From: Candidatus Uhrbacteria bacterium
Lineage (GTDB): Bacteria; Patescibacteriota; Patescibacteriia; UBA9934; GWF2-40-263
Direction: 5' to 3'
Length of the DNA: 52,494 bases
NCBI GenBank assembly: GCA_016206085.1
Contig: JACQSF010000003.1
Location: forward strand, 1 to 52,494
Below are positions 13,850 through 38,477 of this stretch, one piece after another. The position numbers and the translations under genes were made by a program. Position 1 is the first letter of the stretch, and each line of letters begins with the position of its first letter. A model generated the notes under the pieces. The model ran no database searches and was not told the DNA's origin. It worked only from the letters and a program-made list of their open reading frames with translations.

Positions 13850-15001
13850 TTATTTTTTTCCACCCCACATTCTTGGCGTGCGCGAGAGTGCCTCGTCAAG
13901 AATCTGTTTTTGCATTTTGGAAAGCCGTTCCTGTGCGGCCGCGATGTGCACAGGGATCGCGGGGACGGGTTTGCCGAGCTTGCGCTGGAGCACGCGGTCG
14001 GCTGCCAGGGCGATGAAGGGAGCTGTGAGACCAAAACCTTCCTGAATCTCTCGAGGATTTCCAGATTCACCGAACCGGTCAGGCACACCGATTCGTTCTA
14101 TTGGGACAGGAACGGTGAGAGTGATCGTCTCGGCGACAACACCTGCCAGTCCACCTGCGACCTGGGCTTCTTCAACCGTTACGATCGCTCCGGTTTGTTT
14201 GGCTGCTGAGACGATCGCACGGATATCGACAGGTTTGATCGTGTGCATATTTACGACACGGCATTCGATCCCATGGTCTTTGGAAAGCATTTCCGCCGCG
14301 ACTAGTGCCTCGTATAAAAGAGGACCAGCACCGATAATAGTGAGATCATTTCCATGGCGATAGATTTCTGCGCGACCGACTTTGAATGGTGTTTTTTGAG
14401 TCGTAAATACAGGTGACTTTTCACGCGCAAAACGCAGGTAGCATGGGCCAGTCAGTTTGGCTGCGGCAAGAGTCATTTTGCGTGTTTCGATGGCGTCACA
14501 GGGTACGAACACGCGCATATTTGGCATCACTCGCATGATCGCGATGTCCTCGACCATTTGGTGGGTCGCGCCATCGGGACCCACCGACACTCCCGCATGA
14601 GCTCCAGCGATATTGACATTCGTGTTATTGAGCGCGACGGTCGTGCGGATCTGTTCCCAGTTTCGTCCTGGAGAGAAACAGGCATAGCTCGAAATAAACG
14701 GCACCTTGCCCGCCATGGCCATTCCGGCCGCGATCGACGCCATGGACTGTTCTGAAACGCCCATCTGCACAAATCGATCTGGGTACGCTTCTTTGAAAGC
14801 AAGCGAGCGCGTCGATTCTGTTAGATCGGCGCACAGAACAACGATATTTTTGTCGTCCTTGCCCGCTTCAACTAGCCCATCTCCATAGCCGTTGCGTGTG
14901 GGGATTTGTTTGAGTTTCTTGTCGTCAAACAGATCGCGCACTAAATATGCTTCGCGGTTGAGGCCTGGTTTAGGTTGCTTTACACGATTTGACGTATGCA
15001 T
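13850..15001 (-). CDS. Transketolase, C-terminal subunit
   Basis: GVSEQ, GPDGATHQ, YLRFAR, TVEEA. Confidence 0.93.
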   Translation of the reverse strand: MHTSNRVKQPKPGLNREAYLVRDLFDDKKLKQIPTRNGYGDGLVEAGKDDKNIVVLCADLTESTRSLAFKEAYPDRFVQMGVSEQSMASIAAGMAMAGKVPFISSYACFSPGRNWEQIRTTVALNNTNVNIAGAHAGVSVGPDGATHQMVEDIAIMRVMPNMRVFVPCDAIETRKMTLAAAKLTGPCYLRFAREKSPVFTTQKTPFKVGRAEIYRHGNDLTIIGAGPLLYEALVAAEMLSKDHGIECRVVNMHTIKPVDIRAIVSAAKQTGAIVTVEEAQVAGGLAGVVAETITLTVPVPIERIGVPDRFGESGNPREIQEGFGLTAPFIALAADRVLQRKLGKPVPAIPVHIAAAQERLSKMQKQILDEALSRTPRMWGGKK

Positions 15002-15017
15002 AAAGACATGATATTTT
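14989..15017 (+). promoter_or_regulatory. Sigma70-type promoter for NYN-antisense sRNA 1
   Basis: TTGACG-17 nt-TATTTT with extended TG. Confidence 0.65.
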
Positions 15018-15023
15018 ACTTAT

Positions 15024-15079
15024 ATCACCACGAAGAAGACCCCTGTGCGGTTCCGTCCGCATCGGGGGCTTTTTCTTTT
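15024..15079 (+). ncRNA. Candidate small RNA antisense to the NYN gene 3' end (copy 1)
   Basis: ATCACCACGAA leader, long hairpin and U tract; covaries with the copy at 37795-37851. Confidence 0.7.
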
Positions 15080-15576
15080 CGGAACTCTAGCAGTGGTCGC
15101 AAACGCGACTGACCAAGGTAGGTGATAGGAGCATTGGATCGCTTTAGTAAAATAGAGCACTTTTTTTCTTGTGCTGGAGAAACAATCATCTCAAGAGCCT
15201 TATGGCTATGGAGCATTTTAACGAGTCCGGCATAATCACCATCACTCGTAACAACGACTGCCTTTTGAAATGCTTTATGGAAGAAATCTATCGTTGCTTG
15301 TAAGACAAGGTCGGCATCACAGTTTCCTTTTGGTTTTCCATCTCGATCGAAGACTACTTCTTTAAAGACCAAAATAAATCCAACCTCTTGAAGAGATTGA
15401 TAGAGCATTCGATGTTTTGGAATCATTCCAAGAAAGAGATAGGCATTTTTTACACTGTGTTTTTCTCGTAACCAGATTCGAAAACGTCGATAATCAAGAA
15501 TCCAACCTTGAGATTGAATTCCACGGTGCAAGTTTGCTCCGTCAATGTATGCGTTGTTTCGCTGTTCTTTCTGCAC
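15025..15576 (-). CDS. NYN domain (LabA/DUF88, PIN-like) ribonuclease
   Basis: YIDGANL, KGNCDADL, TSDGDY acidic catalytic motifs. Confidence 0.9.
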   Translation of the reverse strand: MQKEQRNNAYIDGANLHRGIQSQGWILDYRRFRIWLREKHSVKNAYLFLGMIPKHRMLYQSLQEVGFILVFKEVVFDRDGKPKGNCDADLVLQATIDFFHKAFQKAVVVTSDGDYAGLVKMLHSHKALEMIVSPAQEKKCSILLKRSNAPITYLGQSRLRPLLEFRKEKAPDADGTAQGSSSW

Positions 15577-15721
15577 AGATTACTTTTTTAGTTTCATGAT
15601 TTCTTTCTATCCAAGCCATGCTTCACGGTTGATGCCAGTCTTTTGCTGTGAATTTGTCATATCGATCAAAATCATACCAGATTTTTTGCTTTGCTGCAGT
15701 TTTGAGCTAAACTGTGCCTGT

Positions 15722-18700
15722 ATGTTACCCGAACGAACAAGAGGAGAAGAACCAGGAGTGGAATATGAGCTAGCGCGTGAGCGGGAACGTGGTCCAATCC
15801 AGGCGGTTGAATCTTTGCGAAAAGATACTCAACGCATGATCAGATTACATGCGCTCTGGGATAAATTTGCTCAGCCACCGGAATCTCCACTATCAGACAT
15901 TACAACCTCGACTCTTGTTGAGAGAGACATACAAGATGCCATGGAACTTCTTCGGGCACCGGAAGTCCGTCTGAAAGAATTTTCACTTCTGGTTATCGAT
16001 AGGCTCGTGTCCTTTTTTTCTGCAGAGGGGAGTCTTCAAATTTTTCTTACTGAAGTCGTACGGGTTACTCAGGATTATTTCTTTCATTTCTCGACTGTAT
16101 CCGGGATTCGTCAACGACTACGCACGCTTATGCACACTCTCCCGGTGGATGACAGACGTTTTTTTCAAGATGGATTTATTCCAACAAAGGGTGATCCATT
16201 CGGGGTCTTGGATCCTGATGTCCGAGACGAGACGCTGTTGCGTATTGTGGAACTTCCCGCTGGTGTAAAACGACTAAACGCGGTTTTGTCTTTCTTGACT
16301 ATTGATGCAAACGCCTGCCTCCAGCAAATCGATCGGTTTGAACTGACAAATCAAGACCGCGAAACGGTATTTCGTGCTGTCGCGGTGCACTCGCCAGATG
16401 TGCTTCCACCGTATCTTCCTTTTTTGGCTGAGCAAGATCCTCATTTGGCACGGGATCTCCTTTCCCAGGTTGTTGAGCATAGTTTCGTGGTTGGTGTCGA
16501 TGCCATAACCCGATTCCCGTTAACACACGCGCAACGTGGAAAGGTTGAATCTCAACTCATTGCCTCGCATCCGCGGGATTTTTTTCTGCATTTTGAGGAG
16601 CTTTCTCAATTTCTTACATCCCTTTCCGTACCCAAGGCTCTTGAGATAGCTTTATCGCACCTTGAGTCCAACCTTCCGGAGGATCCGGTGGAGCGTCTTC
16701 ATATTCTTGATAGTTTGACGCAAGACGATACTGGTTTTACTGATGAGATCACACCAATAATCCGCCGTGCACTTGGCGAAGCACTCAAGGAGTTAACCCC
16801 TGTGCTTGAGGAACTTCGTCGTGACATCGCCCAGATGCGACAGGTGCCGAAAGATCAAGTGTCCTGGTCTTTTGATCTTTTGGATACACTCTCTTGGGAA
16901 TTAAAAACAGAGGATCAGGAGAACGCGCGCATCCGTCAGGCGCAACAACGATTGGGATCTTCCCGTGTGAGACCGCTCCTTTTATCGGCATTCGCTGTAT
17001 CTGTTGGCGAATCTCCCATGGGGTTTGGAAGTAAGGATAGGCCTTTGTCTTTGGCTCAGCGAAGGGTGATCCTTGAGGAGGCGTTGGAAGCCGGCCAAGT
17101 GAACGGTCCCCCACCTGATGAGCAAGCAGAATGGACAGGGTGGGGTGAATTTGCCTACCAACCACGGTCGTCACAAGAGGCCAAAAATATGCGGGTTCTG
17201 CTTGATCGTCTTGTTCAGGTCTCACCAACGGATTTTGTTATTGCCTGGGCATCGCAAAAGGGAGAAATTGCTCGCGCCTATAAACCAATCCTTCTGACGG
17301 TTGCTCAAGAACATCTTGAAAACGCATTGCATTTTATCGATGTATCTGGTCAGGCGATCGTTTTTGCCAACATGGATCTCAAAACAACCAAGTGGTTGGT
17401 TGATAAAGTGTTTGGATCCAACACGCTCACTAGCTTCCATATACCCCACATTCCTCAAAATGTACGTCCATTGTTGCGTCCGTATATTGAGCGTTATCGT
17501 AAACAAGAAGAAATGCCGTATGCGGCATTTCCAGACGTTGCAACGGCCTTGTACGCGTTTGATGTCAGTCCCACATTTGCCAGTCAGATTGCGAATCTTC
17601 CAGAGTCCGAACGCCTCTTAAGAATAGAGGAGTTTTCGGCACTGATGAACGCACATCCTAAGCGGGGGATCCGGGCTCTTCAATCGTTGGGACTCAAAGA
17701 CGAATACACATTGCGTCGGGGAATATTGCGTACGATTGGAATGTTGTTAGACAGATTTCCCGACGCGTTTCTTGATCCCAAGCCTGAAGCACCCGTGCAA
17801 CCTCAGCGTTCTGGAGGGACGTCTTTTGATGAGAAATGGCACCGAATGTTGATGTTTATTCCTTTTTGTCCCCCTGAGCGTTTTGGGGAATTAGTAGGCG
17901 AGTGGGAGCCATGGCTGAAACGTCAACAGCAAAGAAGAGAGACATGGGGAGGAAAATATTTTTCAGATTTTTTCTTAATGGCTTTTCGATTACACAAAAA
18001 ACCACAGGAGGCAGTGGATGCGTTCTCGTTTTTTCTTGACCCTGGATCACCAGTAATAGTAAAACCGTATGAGCTTGCCCATGCGGTATCCATCGAGGAG
18101 TTGTTTGCGCTCACGAAGACCCATGGTGATGAAATGGGGGAATTATTAGGTAATCCGGATACGCGTGGTCGGATCATTCAATATCTCAAAGAGTCGGAAC
18201 ATCCCAAAGCGACATGGGAAATGATCAGGCGATTTGCTGACTCGTATCGGAGCATGATCCCGGAAGCAGACAGACGCGCAAAGATTACGAGCGAGTTGGT
18301 ATTAAAAGGAAATAGAACGCGCCTTTCTGGATCGATCCGTTATGCAACCGTTGGTTCGCAAGTACTCCCCGTGACGCATGTGGGTGTACGTGAAGCTTTT
18401 GTACATCCTCAGGTGACGGATGGGCGATTGGAGCTTACCTCGCTGACAAAGGTAGAACTTGAACGAGTGGTACGCGATCGATTGCAACGTGTGTTTACTC
18501 CTGACATCAATTCTTGCTTGGGGGCAGATGCACACAATCGGGATATCGCACGTCAGGTTAAAGAAGGCGGGTGGCAAGTTCCGGCTGGAACACTCATCCA
18601 TTATACGAGTCCGGCCGTGTTGCCCGCGATTCTCGCGGAAGGAAACTGTTGCGGTGAAACGATTGGGATTCAAAGCCGTGCGGATTCCTTTCCGTTGTTT

Positions 18701-19669
18701 GTTGATGTCTTGCGCGTGCGCGATCAGGATGGATCAGTAAAAGTTCCAGACCTTATGGAACATCCAGAGTACCACGAGAATTACGGTTCCTTTGATAAAG
18801 GTGTCGCATTGGTCTATCCAAGACGATGCAGGACGTCCTTTTTTCCTGGAGAAGAAAAAATAGCAAGTACCTTTGGTCCCGACATCCATCATTTAGTCTT
18901 TGTGGGCATTCCCCATACCGAATTGGGAGTCATTGTATTGACCAATGCTGTTGAAGCCAGGTCATTTGATGATGTGTTAGAGCGGACGAAGACCGCGGTG
19001 GTAAAGTCTGGGGTGTATGTGCCTATCGTCCGTGCCTCAGGTGATCTCTTATTCACTCCTGAAGAGTACGATAAACGTGAAGCGTTTGCGCATCCATACG
19101 CGACGCTTGAGGATTTTTTTCGCGACGCAACGGCCTTTAACACACTTGATCGTCCGCAACCATCCGCGGTACATGAATTTACATTGAAAGAACATCTGCT
19201 TGCTGCTGAACGGAATGTCATGGCTCTTTCAGAGGATTTGCAGGTGCCGTTTGAGATGCGAGATCTCGTGCGCGCGGCGGCGCGACTTCACGATGTAGGA
19301 AAGTTTGACGCGGTAAAGAGCGGTCAAGAGATTGCAAATGTCATCGCCGCCGAACGAGAACTTAACAAGGTGCGAGGATTGGATCCGGAATGGAAACGGA
19401 GGATCCTTGTTCTCATTCATCATGACGAACTTCTGGGGGATATTTTGAAGGGAACAAGTATTGATCCTGATGGGACCATGACTCGCACTCCAGAAGTGAC
19501 CAGAAAAATACAACTGTTTCACGACCGATTTCCGTCCCAGACGGATCGATTGCTTTTACGCGTTCTGTATGAAGCGGATGTCTTGGCGATTGGAAATAAC
19601 ATGTATCAAGAATGGCAGATACAAGAAAAACTGCGGGGACTTGAATTTCATTTATCGTCGATTTCGTAA
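15722..19669 (+). CDS. Large hypothetical protein with C-terminal HD domain
   Basis: ~1315 aa; H..TLKEH, LHDVGK, HHD, EAD near the C-terminus; start reassigned to ATG 15722. Confidence 0.75.
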   Translation: MLPERTRGEEPGVEYELARERERGPIQAVESLRKDTQRMIRLHALWDKFAQPPESPLSDITTSTLVERDIQDAMELLRAPEVRLKEFSLLVIDRLVSFFSAEGSLQIFLTEVVRVTQDYFFHFSTVSGIRQRLRTLMHTLPVDDRRFFQDGFIPTKGDPFGVLDPDVRDETLLRIVELPAGVKRLNAVLSFLTIDANACLQQIDRFELTNQDRETVFRAVAVHSPDVLPPYLPFLAEQDPHLARDLLSQVVEHSFVVGVDAITRFPLTHAQRGKVESQLIASHPRDFFLHFEELSQFLTSLSVPKALEIALSHLESNLPEDPVERLHILDSLTQDDTGFTDEITPIIRRALGEALKELTPVLEELRRDIAQMRQVPKDQVSWSFDLLDTLSWELKTEDQENARIRQAQQRLGSSRVRPLLLSAFAVSVGESPMGFGSKDRPLSLAQRRVILEEALEAGQVNGPPPDEQAEWTGWGEFAYQPRSSQEAKNMRVLLDRLVQVSPTDFVIAWASQKGEIARAYKPILLTVAQEHLENALHFIDVSGQAIVFANMDLKTTKWLVDKVFGSNTLTSFHIPHIPQNVRPLLRPYIERYRKQEEMPYAAFPDVATALYAFDVSPTFASQIANLPESERLLRIEEFSALMNAHPKRGIRALQSLGLKDEYTLRRGILRTIGMLLDRFPDAFLDPKPEAPVQPQRSGGTSFDEKWHRMLMFIPFCPPERFGELVGEWEPWLKRQQQRRETWGGKYFSDFFLMAFRLHKKPQEAVDAFSFFLDPGSPVIVKPYELAHAVSIEELFALTKTHGDEMGELLGNPDTRGRIIQYLKESEHPKATWEMIRRFADSYRSMIPEADRRAKITSELVLKGNRTRLSGSIRYATVGSQVLPVTHVGVREAFVHPQVTDGRLELTSLTKVELERVVRDRLQRVFTPDINSCLGADAHNRDIARQVKEGGWQVPAGTLIHYTSPAVLPAILAEGNCCGETIGIQSRADSFPLFVDVLRVRDQDGSVKVPDLMEHPEYHENYGSFDKGVALVYPRRCRTSFFPGEEKIASTFGPDIHHLVFVGIPHTELGVIVLTNAVEARSFDDVLERTKTAVVKSGVYVPIVRASGDLLFTPEEYDKREAFAHPYATLEDFFRDATAFNTLDRPQPSAVHEFTLKEHLLAAERNVMALSEDLQVPFEMRDLVRAAARLHDVGKFDAVKSGQEIANVIAAERELNKVRGLDPEWKRRILVLIHHDELLGDILKGTSIDPDGTMTRTPEVTRKIQLFHDRFPSQTDRLLLRVLYEADVLAIGNNMYQEWQIQEKLRGLEFHLSSIS

Positions 19670-36081: not shown

Positions 36082-37299
36082 ATGTGGCGGTTTGAATCCA
36101 CTCACGAACGCGCAGAATCTCACTATCTCGATCAGATGATCGCGAAGATTGAGGCTGACCCCCACCTGTTCAGACATGCCGAGGCTCTATTGGATGCCAT
36201 GGTGCATCAAGAGCCACTGATCGCCCAGAGCCTTAAAACACCACAGGATGTTCGATACCATGCCGAAGGACCGTTCATGCGCGATCATCTGCGGCTCATG
36301 CTCATGTTTTTGTTTGCTCTCTCTGAAGAAAAAATACATCTTGTCGACATTGAGGAGTTTCGTCGTCTGAAGGGGTATGAGGGTGAAGTGCAGGAGCTCG
36401 AGGATACGATCAAAGAGCATGTCGCCTTTTTTCAGGTGTTCGCCTTGTGTCATGATGTTGCGAAGTGGGTGACCGTCACGTTTAGTTCCAAGCCGGGTTC
36501 TCGTGGAGAGGCGCTTGGATTCAACACGCCTCGCCTCCATCACTTTGACGATGCGGCGCACGAGCGAGCGAATAAGCGTTCAGAGTATCTTGAATTGTAT
36601 AACACATTTTCAACGCGAGAGTTCACTGGGACGGATCGCGAGACACAGACACAGTTTTACCTCCAGTACGGGGTGAATGTGCACTACCCTACCCATGCTC
36701 GAAAAATTGATGCGCCCGTGTTTGCCGCTCTTTTGACCCGCCTGTGCCATGCGCACGATATATCTGATCATGATCGGTCTATGATCGGGGATCTCATTGT
36801 GCAACACATGGAGTGTGGGTTTGATTTCAAAATTCGTCGTCCTGCCCGCATTCGTCGATACACACATCTGGCCTTCAAGCGCGGGTACGATGCGGATGAT
36901 TTTATTGATCTCGCTCAAGGATGTCTGTTGCTCGATCAAGTCGTTGGATCACGGCGCCTTTCTGCCCATGGTTATTGGCATGATCCTCGGTCACTCATTC
37001 ATTTCTTTCAGAGCGAACACGACTTCGCGCCGCATCGTCGAGCACAGAAAGAGGCCGTCAGAGAGGGACAAGAAAAGAAAGAGCGTAATCGGGTCTTGCG
37101 TGAAGTTGGATTAGACGGCATAGCTATGATGGATGTGCTCGGGATGGAACCTGGATCTGAGTTTGGACTGGCTCTGCGTCGCATCCATGCCGCGGTGTTG
37201 GGTCAGGGAGAGATGCCAGGTTTTGGGAAAAAGATCGATGCAGAGATTGAACGCCGTGCCGGAGAGTTTTATCAAAAGATGTTTGAAAAAGGGGAGTAA
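36082..37299 (+). CDS. HD-domain protein
   Basis: YHAEG..DH, HDVAK, HYPTHA, HM; tail resembles tRNA nucleotidyltransferase C-termini. Confidence 0.75.
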   Translation: MWRFESTHERAESHYLDQMIAKIEADPHLFRHAEALLDAMVHQEPLIAQSLKTPQDVRYHAEGPFMRDHLRLMLMFLFALSEEKIHLVDIEEFRRLKGYEGEVQELEDTIKEHVAFFQVFALCHDVAKWVTVTFSSKPGSRGEALGFNTPRLHHFDDAAHERANKRSEYLELYNTFSTREFTGTDRETQTQFYLQYGVNVHYPTHARKIDAPVFAALLTRLCHAHDISDHDRSMIGDLIVQHMECGFDFKIRRPARIRRYTHLAFKRGYDADDFIDLAQGCLLLDQVVGSRRLSAHGYWHDPRSLIHFFQSEHDFAPHRRAQKEAVREGQEKKERNRVLREVGLDGIAMMDVLGMEPGSEFGLALRRIHAAVLGQGEMPGFGKKIDAEIERRAGEFYQKMFEKGE

Positions 37300-37300
37300 T

Positions 37301-37801
37301 ATGGACGAGAAGAATAAAAGTGTTGCATACATCGATGGCGCGAACCTTCACAAAGGGATTTCTGGATTGGGCTGGAAGTTGGACTATCGGAAATTTAGGT
37401 CTTGGATTCGGCAGAAGTATGGAGTGTCTGATGCCTGTTTGTTTATTGGATTAATAACGAAACATGCGTCCCTTTATACCTCCTTGCAGAGCGCAGGATA
37501 TAGATTGATTTTTAAAGAGGTTGTCTATGATGGAGACGGAAAGGCAAAGGGAAACTGTGATGCCGATTTGGTTCTCAATGCGGTAAGGGATTTTTTTGAG
37601 AATAATATTACGCAGGTCATTCTTGTTTCAAGCGATGGAGATTATGCTCCTCTTGTAAAATTTTGGCAGGAAAAATCCGTTTCCTGTACGGTGGTTTCAC
37701 CTGCTCCACGAAAACGATGTTCGATCCTCCTGAAAAAGACGGACGTCTCCATTTTGTATCTCGAGGAGGTTAAGCATAAGTTGTCATATACTCCAAAATA
37801 A
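37301..37801 (+). CDS. NYN domain (LabA/DUF88) ribonuclease, paralog of 15025-15576
   Basis: YIDGANL, KGNCDADL, SSDGDY; start reassigned to ATG 37301. Confidence 0.9.
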   Translation: MDEKNKSVAYIDGANLHKGISGLGWKLDYRKFRSWIRQKYGVSDACLFIGLITKHASLYTSLQSAGYRLIFKEVVYDGDGKAKGNCDADLVLNAVRDFFENNITQVILVSSDGDYAPLVKFWQEKSVSCTVVSPAPRKRCSILLKKTDVSILYLEEVKHKLSYTPK

Positions 37802-37851
37802 AAGAGCCCCCGGTACGGACGTATCCGTACAAGGGTCTCTTTCGTGGTGAT
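37795..37851 (-). ncRNA. Candidate small RNA convergent with the NYN gene (copy 2)
   Basis: Same leader, hairpin and U tract as 15024-15079; 39/47 ungapped identity. Confidence 0.7.
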
Positions 37852-37857
37852 ACTTCA

Positions 37858-37886
37858 AAGATAGGCTATTTCTTTATGAAAGTCAA
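37858..37886 (-). promoter_or_regulatory. Sigma70-type promoter for NYN-antisense sRNA 2
   Basis: TTGACT-17 nt-TATCTT; same 6-nt gap to the RNA start as in copy 1. Confidence 0.65.
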
Positions 37887-37931
37887 GTCCTTTTCTACAT
37901 TCAGTTGTAAGGTAATTTCTAAGAGAAAGGT

Positions 37932-38477
37932 ATGATGGCGTATCTACAAGGCAGAGTGCTCTATCATGGCGTTGGGTATGTGATCGTGGAAAACGCAGGA
38001 ATTGGGTTTAAGATTACGGTACCAGAGTCCATCGCCCATGAGATTCAAGAACCGACGACTCTGTACCTTCATGAGGCCATTCGCGAAGACGGAAGTGAAC
38101 TCTTTGGATTTTTGTCGATGGCTCAGCTCGAGCTTTTTTGGAAGCTCATCGCCGTCTCAGGGGTAGGTCCTAAGAGCGCTCAGAAAATCGTGTATAGTGA
38201 CGCGGTTGAGCAGGTAAAGGCAAAGATTATGATCGGGGATCTCGCCGCACTCACAGACGTCCCTGGCATCGGTAAGAAAACCGGGCAGAAGATTATCCTT
38301 GAGCTCAAAGGGATCCTCGTGGAAGAACCGGGGATGAGTGCACTGGATGGCGATGCGATCGAGGCACTTATTGGACTTGGTTACTCTCGAAGAGACGCGG
38401 AAGCAGCATTGTCAGGCATCAAGGAAGGGGACACCGAGAGTCGGATCCGTCTGGCACTGAAGCGCTTGTCCCGATAA
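37932..38477 (+). CDS. ruvA: Holliday junction branch migration protein RuvA
   Basis: IRED..LFGF, VSGVGPKSA, VPGIGKKT, ALIGLGY. Confidence 0.95.
   Translation: MMAYLQGRVLYHGVGYVIVENAGIGFKITVPESIAHEIQEPTTLYLHEAIREDGSELFGFLSMAQLELFWKLIAVSGVGPKSAQKIVYSDAVEQVKAKIMIGDLAALTDVPGIGKKTGQKIILELKGILVEEPGMSALDGDAIEALIGLGYSRRDAEAALSGIKEGDTESRIRLALKRLSR

Follow-up and report, generated by a model that had tools for sequence, protein, structure and literature searches.

What is being conserved at the 3' end of a small nuclease gene when the same bases are translated in one copy of the gene and left behind the stop codon in another? The question is raised by a locus in the window, by which we mean the whole 52,494-nt stretch analyzed here (Candidatus Uhrbacteria bacterium, contig JACQSF010000003.1), part of an 877-kb assembly of 34 contigs that represents a bin of the Candidate Phyla Radiation (CPR, or Patescibacteria) at 83% completeness. 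A first-pass annotation of the window had described two cassettes, in each of which a gene with an NYN domain meets a convergent small RNA gene, and had proposed that the motif at their meeting point is selected as RNA and not as peptide. We find that a genuine small RNA gene lies on the strand opposite NYN and that selection acts on it as a structured RNA, that it accompanies this NYN subfamily without exception in the loci examined, and that the pair has been gained and lost together at unrelated sites. The cassette with which we begin, copy 2, consists of three features, the RNA being scored with a covariance model, R1:

37301 to 37801, plus strand: NYN-domain gene copy 2, from ATG at 37301 to TAA at 37799-37801, 166 amino acids

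37795 to 37852, minus strand: small RNA gene copy 2, about 57 nt, 80.5 bits with R1 on the minus strand

37858 to 37886, minus strand: sigma-70-type promoter of the copy 2 RNA, TTGACT at 37886-37881, a 17-nt spacer, and TATCTT at 37863-37858

The probable start of the copy 2 RNA is A37851, where AUCACCACG begins on the minus strand and which follows the -10 hexamer after a gap of 6 nt. An unpaired tail, AUCACCAC (37851-37844), leads into a hairpin (37843-37800) and then UUUUAUUUU, with the U-tract ending at about 37795, such that the small RNA gene overlaps the NYN stop codon. The hairpin is composed of an AU-rich lower stem, a bulged A, a CCCU/GGGG stem, a variable 6-bp upper stem, and a 6-nt loop with GU at its end. 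As a 57-nt RNA it folds at -25.3 kcal/mol (z = -5.3; 0 of 200 shuffles were as stable), and there is no AUG in the RNA of either window copy. The promoter was called independently by a promoter scan, and similarity from one cassette to another stops at its -35 hexamer. Rfam searches of the window at gathering scores retrieved rRNA and tRNA only and no family for the small RNA, those at E-values up to 10 yielded three chance-level matches only, and no description of an NYN-linked small RNA was found in the full-text literature, subscription-only papers aside. We regard the 57-nt RNA as a new and well-supported RNA family.

The other cassette in the window, copy 1, spans 14989-15576 as a whole and is made up of the same parts:

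15025 to 15576, minus strand: NYN-domain gene copy 1, 183 amino acids, Pfam NYN at 40.2 bits (cut-off 24.2)

15023 to 15080, plus strand: small RNA gene copy 1, with AUCACCACG from 15024, 78.8 bits with R1

14989 to 15017, plus strand: promoter of the copy 1 RNA, TTGACG, 17 nt, TATTTT, from the promoter scan and the sequence

The coordinates of the open reading frames (ORFs) confirm that the NYN gene of copy 2 stops at TAA 37799-37801 whereas that of copy 1 translates the motif, its frame running through to TGA at 15025-15027 and ending in ...KEKAPDADGTAQGSSSW. The copy 1 RNA folds at -28.4 kcal/mol (z = -5.3), and its promoter overlaps the start codon of a transketolase C gene on the other strand. 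The NYN proteins of the two copies are 54% identical, and the 5' tail is identical between the two RNAs. These two are the only copies of the RNA in the assembly. A third NYN gene (contig 7, 4187-4630, minus strand; Pfam 112.5 bits) has no associated RNA; it is of another, possibly core, NYN subfamily.

A search of one genome per species retrieved 61 related loci, all from Patescibacteria-type bins, that encode relatives of the NYN protein at identities of 49-80%. The RNAs of 59 of these loci and both window copies were aligned over 60 columns, with a mean column identity of 80% and 14 invariant columns, and RNAalifold predicts 17 base pairs, 10 of which show compensatory changes. Paired cells amount to 98.9% vs 89.7% in shuffled alignments, none of 500 shuffles reaches any of five measures, and slid registers of the alignment pair at 45-73%. 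A U21.G42 wobble occurs in 51 of the 61 sequences, and further G.U pairs occur at columns 10/53 and 14/49 (14 each of 58 distinct rows). Because these frequent G.U pairs would be C-A mismatches if read on the NYN strand, the RNA structure belongs to the strand opposite NYN. The R1 model likewise locates the RNA opposite the 3' end of NYN, in antisense, at 61/61 loci with 58.6-85.7 bits, 59 of them having been seeds of the model that match by construction (L004 and L043 were not seeds), and scores 32.6 bits at most on the NYN (sense) strand. That position and strand are shared by all 61 loci is far beyond chance.

The convergent promoter is conserved as well, as the first-pass annotation had proposed. 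A -35/-10 pair is present in 63/63 cassettes, a count made without a shuffled control, with -35 hexamers of TTGACA in 27 and TTGACT in 17 of them and spacers of 16-18 nt. The 6-nt gap reported for the window copies extends to the family, in that 56 of the 63 have the conserved A at 6 or 7 nt from the end of the -10 hexamer. Since the promoter is kept in every cassette, a hairpin that acts only as the terminator of the NYN mRNA beside an unconserved promoter does not describe this family. Two statements about the 5' tail fared worse. It had been called invariant, which is true of the two window copies, but positions 4-7 vary across the family (e.g. AUCACU, AUACUU, AUAACC, AUUACU). It had also been likened, as a possible coincidence, to the 3' end of 16S rRNA; the likeness stops at AUCACC and does not include the CCUCC core, AUCAC itself is not kept in 24 of 61 family members, and the similarity is probably a coincidence (the assembly contains no 16S gene of this genome for comparison).

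A 9-mer resembling the DnaA box (TTATCCACA or its complement with at most one mismatch, from what we take to be the DnaA box consensus) was observed near the RNA promoter in 15 of 63 cassettes, vs about 0.8 expected from a background of the same loci. These 9-mers lie 4-20 nt upstream of the -35 hexamer, nine are exact, and none is in the window copies (carriers are L005, L012, L015, L022, L024, L026, L031, L036, L042, L043, L051, L054, L058, L060, and L062); the motif may tie expression of the RNA to DnaA. Additional, more diverged RNA-like hairpin units that follow the main RNA in a tandem arrangement were seen at two loci only, L029 (3125-3180 and 3216-3272) and G031 (C6:32940-32996).

Further evidence on the opening question comes from where the NYN gene ends. 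Of 54 cassettes whose NYN frame is intact, 22 have the stop codon ahead of the hairpin, 20 have it within the hairpin, and 12 have it past the hairpin, and the conserved bases are thus non-coding, partly coding, or fully coding, locus by locus. A stop codon that may lie on either side of the hairpin or within it points to selection on RNA and not on peptide, and together with the covariation of the hairpin on the strand opposite NYN this upholds the proposal with which we began. The copy 2 hairpin and its U-tract can fold from either strand (-25.3 and -22.8 kcal/mol), and the hairpin is terminator-like on the NYN strand too, as expected were it nothing other than the NYN terminator, with the promoter a chance match and no RNA made. 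We assign next to no probability to that explanation: the promoter stands at a fixed distance in 63/63 cassettes, the G.U pairs and R1 scores favor the opposite strand, and contigs of other organisms share just the ~57 nt of the RNA. The last observation comes from four metagenomic DNA runs of a single groundwater study, the only runs listed as containing this DNA and none of them an RNA-seq run, in which contigs of other organisms align to 37793/4-37850/3 alone and sequencing depth rises only in the bin 37778-37911 (206 vs about 30 in run X1). A plain bidirectional intrinsic terminator was also considered as a candidate and is ruled out by the conserved promoter and the 14 invariant columns.

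We then asked how closely the RNA is tied to NYN, using 150 other genomes drawn evenly from the phylum and a cut-off of E <= 1e-10 for the NYN subfamily. The subfamily is present in 42 of the 150, some with several copies, and R1 under strict filters matches 19. NYN and RNA adjoin in 12 of these genomes (G071, G104, G139, G073, G140, G031, G053, G142, G029, G044, G145, and G115), and short, weak R1 matches with no NYN nearby (G005, G008, G018, G037, G040, and G080) are probably ordinary terminators. Of the more distant NYN loci that lack an R1 match, 20 were analyzed, and all 20 have a diverged RNA of the same layout, with promoter, 5' AUCA(C/U), hairpin, and U-tract positioned and oriented as in the other cassettes. 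The RNAs at these distant loci comprise 10 weak R1 matches, 6 recognized by motif (group B, with the pattern AUCACGAUGA ... GGUUUCGUCC), and 4 recognized by inspection only (group C, with AUCAUNAGGAGG ... CCUCC and a U-tract). What persists across the three RNA groups is the 5' AUCA. Group C (L104, L107, L108, and L112) has an outer stem of GGAGG/CCUCC and a U-rich tail, which by eye bears a loose likeness to a Shine-Dalgarno/anti-Shine-Dalgarno pair.

The converse search, of metagenomes with the RNA pattern alone, retrieved at least 120 stretches, of which 80 were analyzed. NYN lies antisense and immediately 3' of the RNA in 68 of these 80 loci, at a median distance of 12 nt; in five of the other 12 the contig ends too soon, and seven have no NYN despite at least 450 nt of room. 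Among the neighbors of the 61 loci no conserved partner protein recurs, and no intact NYN gene of this subfamily without the RNA was seen among the loci examined.

As for the protein, the copy 2 product matches Pfam NYN (PF01936) at 59.0 bits (curated cut-off 24.2) as its sole Pfam match, and PADLOC gives weak matches only, to NYN (1.2e-8) and HEC-09 (1.3e-5). Its AlphaFold model has a predicted local distance difference test score of 92.3 and an NYN/PIN-like three-layer alpha/beta fold, the closest folds being 2QIP, a LabA-like NYN protein (TM 0.80, E 9e-12), and the NYN domain of MARF1 (TM 0.65). Residues D12, N15, D87, D89, and D114 are invariant among 42 NYN homologues and D112 is at least 90% conserved; by analogy with the NYN family, the aspartates D12, D87, D89, D112, and D114 are predicted to be catalytic. 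Because the acidic residues are invariant in these homologues, the enzyme looks active, and we predict a metal-dependent endoribonuclease. NYN enzymes other than MARF1 that have been studied are known to cut RNA. MARF1 is likewise an RNase and the sole characterized protein among the fold matches of the copy 2 model (in the accessible part of PMC6217404). The bacterial PF01936 clusters are listed as being of unknown function, without functional studies, and the available portion of the same survey makes no mention of a partner RNA for them (Matelska et al. 2017, PMC5499597). Four database proteins (P0001-P0004) have the NYN domain fused to an upstream enzyme (inositol monophosphatase, 'nucleotidyltransferase', or AAA_33), which are probably read-through or gene-calling effects of a cassette located directly behind another gene.

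What, then, might the pair do? The cassette can be pictured as a self-contained two-gene unit of about 0.6 kb, in which a small NYN-fold nuclease predicted to cut RNA would be encoded opposite a ~57-nt RNA with its own strong promoter, and in which the terminator hairpin of the RNA and the terminator of NYN would be the same DNA. The reading that we favor, tentatively and at somewhat less than an even chance, is that NYN is a toxin-like nuclease neutralized by the RNA: NYN would be harmful when unchecked, and the RNA would most likely bind the NYN protein as a decoy or inhibitor in the fashion of type III toxin-antitoxin systems, to which base pairing between the RNA and the NYN mRNA at its 3' end may contribute.

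How the cassettes decay bears on this. NYN is broken in nine of the 61 loci, with three nonsense mutations (Trp codons changed from TGG to TGA in L007 and L014, CAG changed to TAG in L042), three frameshifts (L058, L060, and L063), and three truncations (L054, L059, and L062), and the RNA is kept beside all nine at 65-83 bits. A broken NYN with its RNA kept was likewise found in G053 and G104:C15, and solo RNAs occur behind unrelated genes in G069 (74.9 bits), G044:C6, and seven metagenome loci. This asymmetry, in which NYN is broken or gone and the RNA kept and never the reverse, fits a toxin with an RNA antidote, and would fit the addiction-type unit that the first-pass annotation had suggested. 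The roles could in principle be reversed, the RNA being harmful and NYN degrading it, as the strong, near-consensus RNA promoter and the predicted RNase activity of NYN would allow; we find this extremely improbable, given that the RNA and its promoter persist beside the nine broken NYN genes and that the RNA occurs by itself in two genome loci and in 7 of the 75 metagenome loci that could be judged. Separately, we observed a TGA where all relatives have Trp (TGG) in two independent NYN genes (L007:2558 and L014:190), which may be ordinary nonsense mutations or else leaky stop codons by which the dose of nuclease is reduced.

Recognition of the RNA by the protein is favored over a purely antisense mode of action because the RNA keeps its unpaired tail, its bulged A, its CCC/GGG stem, and the GU at the end of its loop while the proteins drift to 50-60% identity. 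An RNA that is antisense in cis pairs perfectly at any sequence, and a fixed primary sequence therefore points to protein recognition. Pairing of the RNA with the NYN start region was in turn no stronger for cognate (-4.53 kcal/mol) than for non-cognate partners (-4.51 kcal/mol), without specificity. A second candidate pairing site within the NYN ORF (a 12-nt repeat at 37739-37750 and 37815-37826) was rejected as chance (the best match averages 8.79 of 14 across the family vs 8.72 with shuffled probes).

The same observations speak to plain expression control, in which a convergent RNA and a two-way terminator would dampen NYN and insulate the downstream gene, NYN itself being an ordinary accessory RNase. 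This would suit a hairpin with a U-tract that folds on both strands, solo RNAs that sit terminator-like at the ends of other genes, and an NYN gene that is often coupled to an unrelated upstream gene. On crude gene calls, the cassette is co-directional with the upstream gene in 40 of 55 cases and with the downstream gene in 42 of 54, and NYN starts at most 30 nt behind the upstream stop in 14 of the 40 co-directional cases. Such control needs no fixed sequence, yet the RNA has 14 invariant columns and stays about 80% identical across hosts with 50-60%-identical NYN proteins, and its pairing with the NYN start region is not specific to the cognate partner; we regard plain expression control as very unlikely.

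Somewhat less implausible, in our view, although still unlikely, is a ribonucleoprotein with a positive job, in which the RNA would be a cofactor, scaffold, or short guide of NYN, for instance in a defense or RNA-processing effector. The linkage of RNA and NYN is tight, the conserved single-stranded tail and loop resemble recognition elements, and tail positions 4-7 vary as a specificity element might. Several cassettes sit among restriction, toxin, and conjugation genes, and the weak PADLOC matches to NYN (1.2e-8) and HEC-09 (1.3e-5) point the same way. Against a guide, the tail is only 8-9 nt long and its complement was judged to be no commoner in the genome than by chance (15 occurrences including two self sites vs about 6.7 expected, none extending further, the 13 non-self sites not being mapped to genes). 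The tail is also the same in the two window cassettes despite their 54%-identical proteins, and RNAs persist solo or beside dead NYN genes.

The accessory, movable nature of the cassette also speaks for the toxin-antidote reading. At the copy 2 locus the features concerned are:

37300 to 37929: present/absent block of 630 bp, containing the NYN gene, the RNA gene, the RNA promoter, and a gene stump

37876 to 37935, plus strand: 19-codon stump (MKVKSFS...) of a RibD_C-like gene, a gene that is intact in L021

A 441-nt metagenome contig from run X4 joins 37299 directly to 37930 and so skips the whole block (depth 3.45, 98% identity over 393 nt with seven differences); this empty site rests on one contig with a 48-nt anchor, and the NYN gene is present on other contigs of X4. 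In L021 the ruvA site has yet another, third arrangement, in which the order is ORF405, NYN (59% identical), RNA, a RibD_C gene starting ATGAACGTCAAG, and ruvA, with ORF405 77% and RuvA 86% identical to their counterparts in the window. Five class-level relatives have a ruvA that is not beside a cassette. At the copy 1 site the window has a ~4.6-kb insertion, made up of a 1374-amino-acid HD-domain gene and cassette 1, between a DUF4349 gene and the transketolase C gene, and in a genome of the same order (G046) these two flanking genes abut. The comparisons of gene order that had been suggested for the two sites thus both reveal sites without the cassette. A further empty site is in the bacterium's own genome, where der and pth abut on contig 32; in L003, whose Der is 95% identical, a 600-bp NYN-RNA insertion lies exactly between the der stop and the pth ATG, without target duplication.

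The stump also accounts for a word in the promoter spacer, CATAAAGA, that had been noted as shared by the two cassettes. It is indeed present in both window copies and is not a feature of the family. It is the reverse complement of the start of the downstream gene, TCTTTATG, that gene being transketolase C in copy 1 and the RibD_C-like stump in copy 2; the ATG and first codons of the stump lie inside the copy 2 RNA promoter, which explains the word in the copy 2 spacer.

Across the 61 loci, neighboring genes are unrelated from locus to locus, in agreement with the unrelated contexts already remarked on for the window cassettes. Core genes are among them (der/pth in L003 and L047, atpG/atpD in L012, tRNA synthetases, gyrB, murD, dnaB, and uvrB), as are restriction-modification, PemK, Fic, TrwB-type, GIY-YIG, IS200-transposase, and reverse-transcriptase genes, and L044 and L053 have tandem arrays with further NYN copies. 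The description of the cassette as a self-contained mobile unit therefore holds insofar as it is gained and lost as a block and empty sites exist, and does not extend to a mechanism of movement: no terminal repeats or target duplications surround either window cassette or the L003 insertion, and no recombinase gene is in the cassette. No relative was found in IMG/VR (by protein or RNA pattern) or in a phage collection, both of which hold few CPR elements, and in a plasmid collection, also with few CPR elements, only ~31%-identical NYN genes were found, on three plasmids. The neighbors of the two window cassettes are unrelated to each other as well. The 1374-amino-acid protein (15545-19669, plus strand) has only a C-terminal HD domain, and the 405-amino-acid ORF (36082-37299, plus strand) has no Pfam, NCBIfam, or PADLOC match and contains an HD-like 'CHDVAKW' stretch.

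Precise insertion of this kind could also be the work of a free-standing, homing-type selfish nuclease, with NYN cutting the DNA of empty sites, the cassette being copied in, and the RNA merely throttling expression. The insertion is nucleotide-exact between a stop and the next start codon with no target duplication, filled and empty alleles exist at a precise site (the 37299-37930 contig, and der/pth in L003 vs the bacterium's own genome), and NYN is often degenerate (9 of 61), much as homing genes decay in the course of their life cycle. L003 and L047, moreover, share the der/pth site, and the cassette is more alike in these two hosts (NYN 86.7% identical in amino acids, RNA 58/58 nt) than the flanking genes (Der 70.5%, Pth 59.9%). 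We nevertheless consider homing quite unlikely: the sole characterized fold match is the RNase MARF1, NYN has no DNA-binding domain, and the conserved primary sequence of the RNA would be left unexplained. Nearly every locus is also a different site, such that a homing nuclease would need many specificities. A search for intein-borne relatives of NYN gave four fusions among longer proteins, none with an intein domain, and NYN-only clusters in the Atlas, both searches being shallow.

We would like to note that several points weigh against NYN being a toxin held by its RNA. The gene is about nine times as long as the RNA, which would by chance survive longer under neutral decay, and this far smaller mutational target weakens the argument from asymmetric decay; some of the frameshifts, too, are possibly assembly errors in metagenome bins. 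The promoter count of 63/63 has, as stated, no shuffled control. The greater likeness of the cassette between two hosts (NYN 87%) than of its flanks (Der 70.5%, Pth 60%), together with the precise gene-junction sites, fits a homing-type selfish nuclease equally well. Finally, the layout fits no known RNA-antitoxin family. Most type I toxins are small hydrophobic membrane peptides, unlike the 166-amino-acid soluble globular enzyme encoded here. Type III antitoxins are, in the available portions of PMC5086642, PMC8860590, and PMC13682666, tandem repeats located upstream on the same strand, unlike the single RNA unit found here, which is downstream and convergent and has its own promoter.

More broadly, the cassettes could represent an undescribed, phylum-wide CPR class of selfish RNA-protein modules, in which a PIN-superfamily (NYN) nuclease is held by one hairpin RNA that is transcribed independently, has a constant 5' AUCA tail, and binds the nuclease directly. 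Such modules would amount to a new RNA-antitoxin architecture, with at least three co-diverging RNA/protein subgroups and precise insertion into the operons of core genes, and we consider it possible, though doubtful. CPR genomes are tiny, yet 42 of the 150 sampled carry this NYN subfamily, and something must maintain it. The bacterial LabA-type NYN proteins are, according to the accessible text of PMC5499597, a large family without an assigned function, for which a constant RNA partner would be the first testable handle. Should the RNA neutralize the nuclease, the result would be a new RNA-antitoxin layout and a compact, portable nuclease-plus-inhibitor pair; should insertion be driven by the nuclease itself, we would be dealing with a homing element of a new kind. 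In either case the 57-nt RNA family could join annotation pipelines.

Compared with known systems, the cassette shares features with several. The NYN protein has the same domain and fold as the LabA-like NYN proteins (PF01936, cluster NYN.COG1432; PDB 2QIP). Type I toxin-antitoxin pairs with a convergent 3' overlap include txpA/RatA and bsrG/SR4 of Bacillus. Like these, the cassette would have a cis-encoded, convergent antisense RNA over the 3' end of the putative toxin mRNA with a shared terminator, the overlap in DNA here being that of an RNA at 37795-37852 with an ORF that extends to 37801; their RNAs, unlike that of the cassette, are not known to be conserved in sequence across distant hosts. 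Free-standing homing endonuclease genes, such as the seg and mob genes of phage T4, resemble the cassette in being small nuclease genes that sit exactly at junctions of conserved genes, have both filled and empty alleles, and often decay. They differ in having no known conserved partner RNA, DNA cutting by NYN would be hypothetical, and we know of no homing-nuclease family with an NYN fold. VapBC, as treated in the available part of PMC5499597, is similar in that a small PIN-superfamily RNase is the toxin of a two-gene selfish module, and dissimilar in that its antidote is a protein encoded upstream whereas the constant partner here is an RNA. The type III systems ToxIN, CptIN, and TenpIN, so far as the accessible parts of PMC5086642, PMC8860590, and PMC13682666 describe them, likewise combine a nuclease with an adjacent small structured non-coding RNA, set the ratio of the two by a terminator between the genes, and have a sporadic, accessory distribution. 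The NYN/PIN-like protein is not of the ToxN/AbiQ, CptN, or TenpN families, and the mode of action proposed here, an RNA that would bind and hold its nuclease, is by analogy the one it would share with type III systems.

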